Origin: Octopus vulgaris
Lineage: Eukaryota
Length of the DNA stretch: 64,000 nt
Assembly (NCBI GenBank): GCA_951406725.2
Contig: OX597822.1
Location: 11,160,001 to 11,224,000, forward strand
Direction of reading: 5' to 3'
Part shown: piece by piece, positions 3,807 through 60,825 of the stretch
How the letters are laid out: every line of letters begins with the position of its first letter
Numbering within the stretch: position 1 is the first letter of the stretch
Made by a program: the position numbers and the translations under genes
The notes under the pieces: model-generated
Database searches by the model: none
Told to the model about the DNA's origin: nothing
Seen by the model: the letters and a program-made list of their open reading frames with translations, nothing else

Positions 3807-3850
3807 ACATTTGATGAAGGCTGGAGGGTATATCAGCCGAAACGTTGTGC
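3807..3850 (+). ncRNA. Minimal type-I hammerhead ribozyme motif (Penelope-type), slightly decayed
   Basis: acat-TTGATGA-a-GGCTG-gagggtatat-CAGCC-GAAA-CG-TT-gtgc: 5-bp stem II, palindromic AACGTT stem III, partial stem I, U3 opposite G8. Confidence 0.7.
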
Positions 3851-6749
3851 TAACAAACAAGATGAGGACAAATATCCATATAGTTTGAACATAAAGTTAT
3901 CGAAAACTCTAGACAATCACGGGACGCCTTCTGTACAAAAATAAATCTCGATTTTACATTTCAATGTATTGAATCTTTTCTTGTGTGTATGGCTTTCTTG
4001 TTCCCTATTTTAAGGTACCCTATTACACACACACAAACAAACACACACACACACACACACACACACACACACACACACACACACACACACACACAGAAGC
4101 GATGACGATGGTGATGGTGGCGACGACGACAATGACGATGATGATGTCAACTGTGGCATTTCATTTGCTAGACAGACTTACTTTAGGAGCGACACGAATT
4201 ATCGAGTGGTGTTCAACCTAAACTCCCCACCGAATTTTCCTTTGTCGAGCAGTGATGGTACCTCTGCGTATTCTCTCACTAAGCTAGAAATAGCAATCAA
4301 AACTCCATCATATGACACAAACCGCACATGAACCCGGTTTACGCGTTTGAGGTCGTATTCAATTAAAATAGCTACCTGCATATCATACATAATATATATA
4401 CATTGTCGATAACGCGATATTTGTCCTGAGATAAGATTTCTTATGGACTAGCAGTCACAAATAAATATCAGAAAGTGAGTGAGCGAGAGAAAGAGAGGGA
4501 GAGAGAAAAAGAGAGAGGAAAATTCGTCCCAACGGCATCGAGCGAGAACATCAGATGCATACCGGCCTTTCTGGGCCTTTTAAGTGCCATGTACTTTCAG
4601 CCAGTTACATTGGTCAGATAAGACTTCGTTACCTCTGATATAGGGAAAAGTGAATAAAGAATTCACTGATATTGCGAACAACAGTTCGTCTGAATAGAAA
4701 TCCGCTATATGCAACTGAGGCAGAATTTAATTAAAATGGACAGCTGTGTGTCATATTTAATGCTTAAATAATATCGATAGATCCTTTACTGCGGTATTCT
4801 TCCTTAAGATAATATCTTATATAGACATGCTTTGTTAAAAACATAATAATTATCAGAGGAAGATGAACATTCAGATGCATACGGCCGTGAATGAAAATAA
4901 CGACTGTGGTTAAACGTACCAAGGGTACATTTAATAGAAGCAGCACTGCATCTTGTGTTTATCATACTACCACTCCTCCCCACATATGTGTATAATATAA
5001 TTAACATAAATATAAACTCGTAGCACCGACTACTTGTAGAGATACAGTGCACTCTCAGTGACCAGAATATCTTGTTTTGATGATCTAAGGTTGTGCTTCC
5101 TTTGTTCTCGAACGTCTATCTCCGATCTACACACATGCACTCACACACATTCTAACACACGCACTTATTATGCACTCACGCACATAGATGTGCGTTCATA
5201 CACACATCGACACCCAGCTAAAAATTAGTCAGTTTCTCCCAGAAAGAGCTTAATAAATAATTAAAAATTAATTAGAAATATTACACAGCAAGAATCTATG
5301 AAGGAAATGAAACGAACTGGACGTATCAGGAATGTATATATGTAGATGTGCGTGTGTGCATGCTTTGTACAAATCACACACACACACATGTATATATATA
5401 TATATATATATATATATATATATATAATTTCATATCTGTTATATGTATATACTTCTGCATGCATACATATACATATTACACACACACACATATATGCACC
5501 TACATAAATATATATATATATATATATATTACATATATGTAAATATATATAAATATATATATATATATATATATATACGCACATGCACACACACACACAT
5601 ATATATATATACATGTATATGTATGTATATATATATATATATATATATATATATATATATATATATATATATATATGTATGTATATATATGTATATATAT
5701 GTATATATATGTGTATATATATATATATATATACATATATATATACACACACACACACACACACACACACACACACACACACACACACATATATATATAT
5801 ATATATATATATATATATATATATATATATATATGTACGCCTGCCTGTGTGTGAATCCTATGAAGTAATCTGTCTGCGGTCGGCTGGAAGTGGACAGTCT
5901 TGAAATAGTTCCAAGACTAATTGAGCCAAGAACATATAACAGATTCCCTGGATGTTATATTGTCTGGTTATTGTTAATCCTTTGAAGGGAAATGGCGGAG
6001 GACGGCGAGGGGAATTGTTGACGTGTCACGTGTATTGATGATGGTCACGTATGGTGAATGTACGCATGCGTATGGTCTTAAATGCATGAAAACATACACG
6101 CACACACATACATGCATCGATACACACACTTACACATAAATAAATACATGTGTAGGTACGCACATCCTCTCACCAATGTATATATGAAGCACATATGCAT
6201 ATATGCACATACAGGTGCACGTGCAGTAACGCGCACACGCATTCACTTGCAACCTTCTCCTCTCACACACGTATACATGAGTATATTCGCTCGCGTGCGC
6301 ACTTGTGCATGTGCTATGTATATATGTATGTATTTGTGTGCATGAATGTATGTGTGTGTATATTCGTTTATCTGTCTGTCTGTCTATCTATCTATCTGTC
6401 TATCTGTTCGTCTGTCTGTTTGCCTGTCTGCCTGTCTGTCTTCCTATCTATATAGATATACATATACATACACACTTACATAAATGTATACATACATACA
6501 AATATATATACATATGCATATATATATATATATATATATATATATATATATATATATATATATATACATATATGTATATATATACACATACATATATATG
6601 CATACACATATATGTAAATATATATATATGCACATACATATATATATATATATATATATATATATATATACACATACATATATATGTATATATATATATA
6701 TATATATATATATATATATATATATATATATATATATATATATATATAT

Positions 6750-6940
6750 GAAACGGGAAGGTTTACGAAAGTAAACAAAAGACGAAGGCAGGTGGAATAC
6801 AAACAAACAGTTGTATTAGTATGGCGCTCAGGAATAGAAATAAAACAAGTCTTTTACGTTTCGAGCCTACACTCTTCGACAGAAAGATACACAGAAAAGA
6901 AACAAGGAGAGAAAAAAAATTGCGTGTAGGGGCTAACGTA
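6750..6940 (-). mobile_element. Short non-coding element between two (TA)n arrays carrying a hammerhead motif (Penelope pLTR-like)
   Basis: Unique ~190 bp bounded on both sides by (TA)n; hammerhead at 6850-6887. Confidence 0.6.
6850..6887 (-). ncRNA. Minimal type-I hammerhead motif with variant core CUGUCGA
   Basis: Minus strand tcttt-CTGTCGA-a-GAGT-gtag-GCTC-GAAA-CG-TA-aaaga: perfect 5-bp stem I, 4-bp stem II, palindromic ACGT stem III. Confidence 0.75.
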
Positions 6941-7454
6941 TATATATATATATATATATATATATATATATATATATATATATATATATATATATATATA
7001 TATATATATATGTACGTATGTATATTCTCATTGTCGTATATGTGTGTAGATAATATGCCAAATTTTCTGTCATTTATAATATTCAACATGGAAACACTCA
7101 TACACAGAGTCACACTTACGCAAACACATACACACACTTGCGGGCCTGCACAGACACGCATACACACACACACACACACACACACACACACACGCTATCT
7201 ATCTATATTTAGATCTATTTGCATTATATGTTTGAGAATGTATATACAGACATGTATATATTTTTCGCTCTCTATCTATCTATCTATCTATCTATCTATC
7301 TATCTATCTATCTATCTATCTATCTATCTATCTATCTATCTACCATACACAGAGACTTGCGCGCATGCACATACCCAAGGAACACACGAGTTGATACATA
7401 TATGGTAAAAGAGTCAAGGTAGAAAATAATAAAATAATTTTATAAAAAACATTT

Positions 7455-58389: not shown

Positions 58390-58555
58390 TACAATCGGTG
58401 CAAGGCGGAGGAGAGAGTCTAGTCAATCATATCTACCTCAGTGTCCAATTGGTACTTATTTCATCGACTCCGAAAAGATGAAAGGCAAACTTCACCTAGG
58501 CGGAATTTGAATTGTCAAGCATTAAATGTCCGGTGTCGATTCTGCTAGCTCGTCG
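58390..58555 (-). mobile_element. SINE family B, diverged
   Basis: ggtacttatttcatcgactccgaaaagatgaaaggcaaa..cggaatttgaa..gattctgctagctcg. Confidence 0.75.
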
Positions 58556-60628
58556 TTTTAGGTTTGGTTGAAATAACGACGGATAAAAATTAACTTTATT
58601 TCTTGATTATTCTCAATATTTTGCCCATTCGTGATGAAGTATGCTTTCGTCGAATGATTTGTCTTGTGAAATATCTGGAATGCGTTCAATAGCTTCTCTC
58701 TACATTTGTCCACCATCTTTTCGTTATCCATTTGTTTTCTTGTTTCTGTTAATATCTCTATGTCCTAATATTTCGACAATTATTACTCTTGTAATATTTC
58801 CAACCATAAATATATAATTTTCTTGGAAGAATACGTTCAATTTATCCTTTAATCCTACCGATTCTTTTTTCTTGTTTGAGATTCCATAGACTATATACAT
58901 ATATTATATATTCATATAAACGAGAAGGATATAAACCAGTGAATCAGTCTCAGAACTTGACTGTTATTTGACTTTATGGCTAACGGACTTTCATGACAGC
59001 GGGATTTTGAATCAACGGAAATACTCCATGATGCTTAACTTAAATGAATGTCCTTACATGAATTGGTTATAAATTAGCGTTTAATCTTAACTGTTATATA
59101 AATTCATATCTTATCTACTTATACCAACCGCAATATAGCAACAACAACACAAACTACAAGGAAAATAATAACGAGAAGGAAAAAAATACACGGGAATATG
59201 CACTCACCGACCTGAAGACAATTTATGGCTTGGAAATAGTTAAGATTATTTTCCGTTAGATTCTTGTTTGAGACGAAAAAAGGAAATCAAAAAGTTCAAA
59301 ATTGAAGGAACTTTGTGTCTACAAAAAAAGTAAACACCCCAAAATCTTTGTAGATATATAATATACATACACACTAATATGTACGCACATGCGTATACAT
59401 ATACACATAAACACACAGACACACACACACACATACAATCTCATACGCATATATATATATATACATACATATATACATATGTTTATATTTATGGGTAAAT
59501 ATAAAAATATTTATATACGTATATATATCCATATATACCTTTATATATGTATATATATGCATACACACGCACACATATATGTGTATATATATATGTATAT
59601 ATATATATATATCCGTATAAATTATATATTCTATGTATTATGTGTATGTGTATTATATCCATGCAAACATATATATGCATATATATATATATATATATAT
59701 ATATATATATATATATATGTATGTATATATGTGTGTATATGTATTATATATGTGTGTCTTTATTCGTGTGTATATATATATATGTTATATGTATGCATGT
59801 ACGTATACATATATATATGTATGCAGATATATATATATGCATACATATATATATATATATATATATATATATATATATATATATATATATATATATATAT
59901 ATATATATATATATATATATATATATATATATATATATATATATATATATATGTATATGTATACTCTTCCTCTAAAGCAGACAAAAGAACAATAAAACCT
60001 GGGAATGAAAACAATACGTGTGTTTCTATTTTATGACTTCAGATGTGGCAAGTGGTTTTTCATGGATTTTGTTGCTGTTGTTATTGTTGTCGTTATTGTC
60101 GCTTCTGTTGTTATTGGTGTTGTCATTGCTGTTGCTGTTGTTGTTGTCGTTTCGATTATTGTTTATCTGGTCTTATATTCTTTGTTATTTTTACATCAGA
60201 AAACTTTAAAAACAGCAGAGACAAAAGTGATTTTAAACGTTCGGGGAATTAACTATTCCAAAATGTTGTAAACAACCGTCAGTGTTTGAATAGCTGTGAG
60301 AGTGTTTGCTGTGTGTGTGTGTTTGTGTGTGTATTTGTGTGTATGTATATATATGGATACATACATACGCACACACACACCCATATATATATATATATAT
60401 ATTATTTATTCATATACGGGTTTGTTGAAATAAACAGAATTAATAGAGCTCAATACATGAGTATTTACTTTTTTATTCAGTTGTAAAGTTGCATAAGTGA
60501 CTCGAAAGCAAAGAGGTTCAAGCATTGCAGTTATACGCCCCCTCCACACACGCACACACACATATATGTATAGGCATATATATCCGAGTATTTGAATATA
60601 TATATATATATATATATATATATATATA

Positions 60629-60825
60629 CTTTATTTAAAGCAGCAGAAAATTCAACAAACCCTGTTACCATTCTAGCAAAAACTGTCCGATGAACGGCAA
60701 CGGGAAACTCAGAGTAACAGGTTTTGTTGAATTTTCTGCTGCTTTAAATAAAGCATATTACTCTACCACTGGTATTTGAGTACTCTTTTTTCCACCTTGT
60801 TTCACATTTATGTGTTTAATCCGGT
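60629..60825 (+). mobile_element. Short (TA)n-flanked element with a hammerhead and a 40-bp 5' inversion
   Basis: 60629-60668 is the reverse complement of 60714-60753; related sequence at 45790-45870. Confidence 0.8.
60683..60720 (+). ncRNA. Minimal type-I hammerhead motif, two substitutions from canonical
   Basis: ctgt-CCGATGA-ACG-gcaa-CGG-GAAA-CTC-a-GAG-TA-acag. Confidence 0.7.

Follow-up and report, generated by a model that had tools for sequence, protein, structure and literature searches.

The pairing of positions 3 and 8 in the hammerhead ribozyme is known from a crystal structure and from engineered swaps, and in nature the pair was known to be C-G or, rarely, U-A. Whether a genome can maintain other versions is the question raised by a 64 000-nucleotide stretch of the Octopus vulgaris genome (contig OX597822.1, positions 11 160 001–11 224 000; G000:C9:11160001-11224000), hereafter called the window. 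It is 35% GC and microsatellite-dense, and contains minimal type-I hammerhead folds in which C3-G8 is replaced by U3-A8 or G3-C8. The original prediction, made from the window alone, held that such swaps belong to whole families of Penelope-like elements and are not the decay of single copies. We searched the genome (2.8 Gb, 227 contigs) for relatives and patterns. All four Watson–Crick forms of the 3–8 pair are fixed as family-wide states and, as judged by sequence comparison, the motifs have likely been kept able to self-cut.

Families with a swapped 3–8 pair

Relatives of the two types of U3-A8 fold in the window (families A and B) and of its G3-C8 fold (family G) were aligned from the best genome matches, with 30 loci per family picked by overall likeness and read by eye; 40 of 1750, 2616 and 550 candidates, respectively, were scored. 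U3-A8 is present in 33/33 rows covering the core in family A and in 34/36 in family B, and G3-C8 in 38 of the 39 rows covering the core in family G. The family G copy in the window has the predicted G3-C8 pair, a 7 bp stem I and a 5 bp stem II together with an A15.1 to G change, while in its relatives the GAAA sequence and the AAUAUU palindrome are restored. A canonical CUGANGA family consensus, which would mark the variants as copy-specific decay, was looked for in these alignments; the consensus keeps the swap in all three families, as the original prediction had it.

With positions 3 and 8 left free, the family G pattern has 6004 exact matches in the genome and none for the reversed pattern used as a control. 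About 91% of them (∼5500) are G3-C8, 344 are not C8 and 169 have C8 without G3. A U3-A8 fold at L082:497 (+) shares the stem II of family G and has few relatives among the retrieved loci.

Two further swapped families lie outside the window. Family J (L261–L272, L247, L248 and L302) has A3-U8: it yields 931 matches against a control of zero, and the first 100 comprise 93 A-U, two U-A that belong to other families and five mismatches, with position 7 and loop II varying. Family G2 (L277 and L281–L296) is a second G3-C8 family with an ACCGGU stem III (164 matches versus 56 in the control, most of the first 100 rows being one family). A family-blind pattern that asks for the ACCGGU stem and for neither C3 nor G8 gives 14 279 matches versus a control of 1486. 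Its first 100 rows are 79 U-A, 16 A-U (12 of them family J), one G-C and four unpaired; this is 96/100 Watson–Crick where base composition predicts 35%, for rows that start one contig and are not independent. In the ACCGGU class with 7–22 nt spacing, swapped cores outnumber C3-G8 by about 75:1, C3-G8 having only 188 matches (control 36), mostly from a 359 bp tandem array. The ACGU stem is found with C3-G8 (18 903 matches, control 1109), and doubly changed cores with this stem show no excess (1878 versus 3120). Over these stem III classes only, and thus not exhaustively, the excess over control comes to ∼39 000 exact matches that are non-canonical and ∼18 000 that are canonical, in agreement with the proposal that CUGANGA searches miss the variants.

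A first A3-U8 pattern, in which an extra base after A9 was forced, was rejected (613 matches versus 693 in the control); 20 rows taken from it are mostly not hammerheads, and three of them led to J and G2. The A3-U8 rows L273–L275 lack stem I and were not counted. In an unbiased 400 kb sample of 40 stretches, a strict type-I descriptor with positions 3 and 8 free finds eight matches (six C-G, one A-U, one U·U, no U-A and no G-C), of which the A-U and U·U matches look like chance (2.25 matches per 400 kb in shuffles); this sample is too small and too strictly searched for a census of swapped families.

Penelope-like context and covariation

Judged by its genes, family A is a Penelope-like element. 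Its reading frame runs in the order reverse transcriptase (RT), CxxC linker and GIY-YIG endonuclease (RVT_1, E = 7e-6; GIY-YIG, E = 6e-4; both under the curated cut-offs), and the motif lies ∼130 nt downstream of the stop codon of the GIY-YIG frame. The copies show variable 5′ truncation, an inverted partner and a (TA)n flank. The endonuclease genes of these elements have a zinc-finger-like CxxC linker, a feature that the available part of PMC8557442 describes for the Neptune clade. An RT/GIY-YIG gene is found upstream of the motif in four lineages, namely A (U-A), J (A-U), G2 (G-C) and a U·G family, which bears out the suggestion that several of the families are Penelope-like. The endonuclease gene is seen in three of 12 short loci of family J and in 7/16 loci of G2, and L302, although broken, is a nearly complete element in which RT is followed by GIY-YIG and both arms have A3-U8. 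No reading-frame partner is present in the retrieved loci of families G, B, S and H. The motifs appear to reside in the 3′ repeats of several Penelope-like families and of what are likely non-autonomous derivatives. Inverted partners occur in families A, G and J.

A tree of 21 endonuclease fragments, which are short and partly frameshifted, is unrooted and leaves out most family A copies, has separate U-A, G-C (support 0.99) and A-U (support 0.73) groups that are ∼50–55% identical. Each of these three pairs marks one sister Penelope-like lineage. The lineages supply 31 distinct rows, whose stem I is paired to 81% and has undergone double changes at 5/5 pairs, and whose stem II shows compensatory changes at one of two pairs. 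Overall pairing is 85.8% compared with 63.4% in shuffles (0/500 reach the observed value) and 21–37% in slid controls; stem I was not part of the search patterns, and the relatedness of the rows inflates these figures. Two count-of-types covariation measures do not beat shuffles on the same rows.

The core order N3UGAN7N8A, stem II, GAAA, stem III, UH and stem I is present with changed positions 3 and 8. Across the aligned families G12, A13, A14, the A15.1-U16.1 pair and a non-G residue at 17 are conserved, partly by virtue of the pattern. The idea that H17 does not pair with N3 was dropped, as it fails in families A and B, where U3 occurs with A17. The 10.1–11.1 pair is G-C, together with an extra base after A9, in families G, S, S2 and that of the 3808 site, G-C without the insert in A, J and G2, and A-U in B. 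The self-pairing ACCGGU duplex is computed at −8.3 kcal mol−1.

Two side observations belong here. In family B a pyrimidine tract and CAG make up the 5′ strand of stem I. At L276:290–448 an inverted pair has U3-A8 in one arm and A3-U8 in the other; it is a singleton genome-wide, and no A3-U8 subfamily was found within the family A clade, where L276 is one of 12 non-U3 rows.

Family G as a non-coding element

The 5′ end of family G is fixed ∼25 nt before the core and inverted partners are frequent. The 3′ ends fall near +125 and +185, ∼60 nt apart. In seven of 59 5′ ends a branch point, a pyrimidine tract and a CAG precede the core by 22 nt, the signature of a splice acceptor (loci L185, L193, L199, L204, L214 and L058), and 20/59 finish in TGAG. 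This minority together with the TGAG ends suggests that family G may exist in unspliced and spliced forms, by analogy with D. virilis Penelope, for which both forms are recorded in the portion of PMC4209133 available. In computed monomer folds stems I and II form and stem III stays open; the stem III palindrome is weak and is only partly captured in the duplex computation. Pairing of the 5′ end with loop II was considered and dropped, since the second loop subfamily does not preserve it.

Two RNA-sequencing runs give 1456 and 1112 reads on the family G copy L044, from both strands equally, and 84–85% of these reads run into unrelated flanks. They look like copies within host transcripts. A search across sequencing runs lists no RNA run. 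Two runs that bear the labels of other organisms likewise have contigs with family G, positions 3 and 8 being invariant among the matches listed.

C3-G8, U6 and U·G families

Judged by their aligned relatives, the sites at 3808 and 16836 are members of C3-G8 families. Family S2, to which the 6850 site belongs, has U at position 6 in 23/24 aligned copies, the exception, with A, being a diverged copy; any of the four bases occurs at position 7, and C3-G8 is fixed. The U6 state of this site, which is that of its whole family, had escaped the original prediction. S2 is among the largest hammerhead-shaped families. The canonical consensus has invariant C3, A6 and G8; the swapped families are without its C3 and G8, and S2, a C3-G8 family, is without its A6. 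Family H (L116–L140) contains copies with U4 as well as with C4, and its 10.1–11.1 position varies and is often unpaired. Family K (L221–L232), an old family, is mostly U3·G8 and has stems I and II in common with family G, and a young U3·G8 family (L298–L301) falls within the family A clade with endonucleases that are 84–85% identical. The 359 bp array mentioned above (L297; G000:C1:20003400-20004200) runs head to tail with a canonical C3-G8 hammerhead per unit, and its sequence makes it likely to be a non-LTR retrozyme.

Hammerhead-like sites in the window

The strict descriptor finds six sites free of core mismatches in the window, three of which are Watson–Crick at 3–8 (7487−, 19276− and 21151+), compared with 17 sites and three Watson–Crick pairs in total in 12 dinucleotide shuffles of the window (means of 1.4 and 0.25). 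If one mismatch is tolerated, 53503− (G3-C8), 6882− and 45864− join the set amid many chance-like matches. Of about ten type-I folds predicted at 11 sites, nine sites are hammerhead-shaped, eight are independent and only three are defect-free. These three are the U3-A8 folds predicted at 7455, 19246 and 21145; the last two, listed separately, are not independent because they are the arms of one inverted insertion. Among the proposed C3-G8 sites, 6850 and 60683 hold, with U6 and a U4 to C change, respectively, and neither 18856 nor 37063 has a complete fold. Single-site decay describes 3807 (U3·G8) and 16836 (C3·A8) correctly, and 45831 has two changes (G8 to A and G12 to C). Tiny palindromic stem III sequences (ACCGGU, ACGU and AAUAUU) are indeed found in the families, with 60683 having a 4 bp stem III instead. 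Overall, the original prediction overstated the novelty of U3-A8 and the number of independent sites, and it understated the repertoire, in which A3-U8, U3·G8 and U6 families also exist. All features are listed in Table 1.

Table 1. Hammerhead-like folds and associated elements in the window (window coordinates)
Feature	Position	Strand	Remarks
U3-A8 minimal type-I hammerhead fold, family A	21144–21182	+	N3 at 21151, predicted cut after 21175
U3-A8 fold, other arm of the same inverted insertion	19245–19283	−	Strict descriptor
5′-truncated Penelope-like arm (endonuclease end and 3′ repeat), (TA)n end	20570–21387	+	
Longer 5′-truncated, frameshifted arm: RT end, linker, endonuclease, 3′ repeat	19120–20572	−	Head to head with 20570–21387
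Open frame, CxxC linker and GIY-YIG endonuclease domain	20548–21024	+	PF01541, E = 6e-4, 20.4 bits, cut-off 22.6
U3-A8 minimal hammerhead fold, family B	7455–7490	−	Strict descriptor
210 nt non-coding element, family G	53318–53527	−	Fixed 5′ end, two alternative 3′ ends, frequent 5′ inverted copy
G3-C8 hammerhead fold, family G	53460–53510	−	N3 at 53503, predicted cut after 53467; A15.1 to G
C3-G8 fold with U at position 6, family S2	6850–6887	−	
Decayed copy (G8 to A, giving C3·A8) of C3-G8 family S	16836–16870	+	
Decayed copy (C3 to U, giving U3·G8) of an abundant C3-G8 family	3808–3849	+	
C3-G8 fold, U4 to C, family H, 4 bp stem III	60683–60720	+	N3 at 60690
Doubly decayed fold (G8 to A, G12 to C), family H-like	45827–45872	−	
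Repeat copy with CUGAUGA box, no supported hammerhead fold	18858–18942	−	
CUGAGGA and hairpin, incomplete, single copy	37056–37102	−	

Two entries of Table 1 are not supported as hammerheads. In 18858–18942 the GAAA box is broken and stem I is not formed; three of the six relatives retrieved match the core anchor, and those three keep neither palindrome nor stems. In 37056–37102 neither GAAA nor stem III follows the hairpin, and the sequence is single-copy.

Folding energy does not discriminate: none of eight sequences folds better than its shuffles (z from −0.67 to +1.24), which is uninformative on its own. Rfam gives no match at its gathering score in the window, and an E-value scan gives 491 matches, of which the 150 listed are all microsatellite-driven. 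Nor is there an Rfam hammerhead match in five loci that include one C3-G8 array (L297); as this canonical array is also missed, the swap alone does not account for the failure.

The window also contains a fragment of a non-LTR reverse transcriptase (RVT_1, 13624–14268; noted span 13624–14570), a Tc3-like transposase fragment (50199–50741) and, beside the family G copy, an inverted pair of short repeats (53800–53890 on the plus strand and 53980–54075 on the minus strand) that fits the descriptor no more than loosely.

Comparison with known hammerheads

Short-stem-III hammerheads that are associated with Penelope elements and cleave as dimers were reportedly treated by Lunse, Weinberg and Breaker in 2016/17, and the alignments of that work are the main risk to the novelty of G3-C8 and A3-U8. 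By every testable feature except the invariant core, the octopus motifs are Penelope-associated minimal hammerheads. Minimal hammerheads and U3-A8 are published; G3-C8, A3-U8 and U6 as family states are new variants. No natural G3-C8 or A3-U8 family was found in the literature, with coverage of subscription and directly relevant papers being incomplete.

The closest system is that of Cervera and de la Pena (2014; PMC4209133). The portion available describes type-I motifs with a tiny palindromic stem III in a terminal repeat, many families per genome and mostly single or opposite-strand copies, as here. It also reports ∼1300 matches to a U3-A8 variant in S. mansoni, and one U3·G8 row stands in its supplementary alignment. 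The same portion contains no G3-C8, A3-U8 or U6 family, whereas in the octopus genome sister lineages are told apart by three pair states. Natural U3-A8 covariation, as well as A6C and U4C variants of low activity, are described by Perreault et al. (2011; PMC3088659), where U3-A8 is called rare and, in the text available, G3-C8 and A3-U8 go unmentioned. In the anole Poseidon element PAc an engineered C3G/G8C double mutant partly restores cleavage of a Penelope-like hammerhead, and PAc shares with family G the possession of two 3′ ends (a 'tail') (PMC11167929, in the part available); unlike the families described here, the swaps in this and in PMC9901934 are, as far as the accessible parts go, laboratory mutants. 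Non-LTR retrozymes (bioRxiv 10.64898/2026.07.22.740005, partial text) are likewise non-autonomous, hammerhead-bearing and derived from Penelope repeats. They form tandem arrays, in contrast to the dispersed or inverted families of the window, and only L297 fits them.

Probable selection on the 3–8 pair and its alternatives

We regard it as probable, from comparison of the families, that the 3–8 pair is fixed family by family as C-G, U-A, G-C, A-U or U·G by selection on source elements that maintains a fold cutting slowly as a dimer. Two motifs would pair through their self-complementary stem III and then cut after H17, while individual genomic copies would decay neutrally. This selection for a cleavable dimer would be weak enough for wobble or mismatch steps, so that a lineage may survive such a step and later fix the compensating change; such survival is conceivable, as insertion is also possible from RNA that has not been cut (PMC11167929). 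Motifs with a short stem III show no activity by themselves and cleave slowly when dimeric (PMC4209133). In catalysis G12 serves as general base and the 2′-OH of residue 8 as general acid (PMC6155905). Residue 8 acts through this hydroxyl and is held in the active fold by pairing with residue 3 (PMC3884650), so that its base is free to change in step with position 3. These statements rest on the available portions of these papers. A bolder version, to which we give only tentative credence, is that natural G3-C8 and A3-U8 ribozymes are seen here for the first time and act as dimers, next to U3-A8, U3·G8 and U6 forms, with sister lineages having passed through every pairing state and most hammerheads being invisible to the standard descriptor.

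Several observations weigh against selection for cutting. The 3–8 column of the 31-row alignment is selected by the pattern and hence is no evidence. Most copies are single or head to head and thus lack a same-strand dimer partner. Stem II is only 1–2 bp in J and G2 (1–4 bp in G2), with the second pair open in 11/31 rows. Imperfect cores can amplify, as the U6 family and the excess of G3·G8 show: S2 has 22 254 exact matches, with U6 in 96 of the first 100, although changes at A6 lower activity (PMC3088659, in part), and in family G C8 to G accounts for 41 of the first 100 non-C8 rows (∼2.3% of the family) compared with ∼0.4% for the mirror change G3 to C. The latter excess hints that unpaired family G lineages amplified; the G3·G8 copies occupy several haplotypes and are not visibly older, and no C3-G8 copy of family G is found among the 41 G8 rows. 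A3-U8 may be nearly dead, since a full pairwise mutational screen of one type-III hammerhead recovered activity for no swap but G-C, the other double mutants of the box being low and U-A and A-U being no standout rescues (PMC9901934, in part). In the two RNA-sequencing runs the depth is flat over the predicted family G cut without a pile-up of ends; as the libraries are fragmented and the reads look like host transcripts, this says little for or against cutting.

A rival idea is that the fold is retained for some role besides cutting, such as RNA dimerization, binding of the RT/endonuclease protein, or positioning of splicing, with a structural 3–8 pair and with several families, chiefly A3-U8 and U6, catalytically negligible. 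It would explain the missing RNA ends at the predicted family G cut, the place of the U6 family among the most numerous and the splice-acceptor signature ahead of some family G cores; furthermore, ribozyme-dead mutants of the anole element left insertion in vitro unchanged, and that element also lacks RNA-sequencing ends (PMC11167929, in the part available). We nevertheless consider it unlikely. The 3–8 pair forms in the catalytically active fold and not in the ground state (PMC3884650, as far as available), and the residues kept besides it (G12, A13, A14, A15.1-U16.1 and a non-G at 17), partly by pattern, are those that cutting needs.

Unconstrained drift of the source elements, with a few lineages reaching paired states through chance or inter-family gene conversion, seems improbable. 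Few independent origins are needed, perhaps three to five, and the A3-U8 arm beside a U3-A8 arm at L276 as well as the U3·G8 majority in old family K and in one young family fit such relics. Set against this, U·G is itself a possible pair, the remaining core positions are constant while turnover affects position 7, loop II and stem I, and the pattern listings examined contain no large family with A·A, C·C, U·U, A·C or a similar state. That the variants are nothing but copy-specific decay or chance matches has a negligible probability. Decay is the true account of 3807, 16836 and 45831 and probably of 18856 and 37063, and doubly changed ACGU-stem cores do stay within their control. This explanation is nevertheless refuted for A, B, G, G2 and J. 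What speaks against it is fixation at the family level, which in G and J extends over hundreds to thousands of copies, the controls being zero.

Implications

G-C and A-U as family-level states, in hundreds to thousands of copies, provide comparative proof of the 3–8 pair, and the swapped families are ready-made natural constructs for finding out which contexts tolerate each pair. They offer a dated record of compensatory change crossing a low-fitness step, for which the U·G family and the excess G·G copies are candidate intermediates. Ribozyme censuses based on CUGANGA can miss most of the motifs of a genome, and the families described here bear on whether Penelope elements need cleavage at all.

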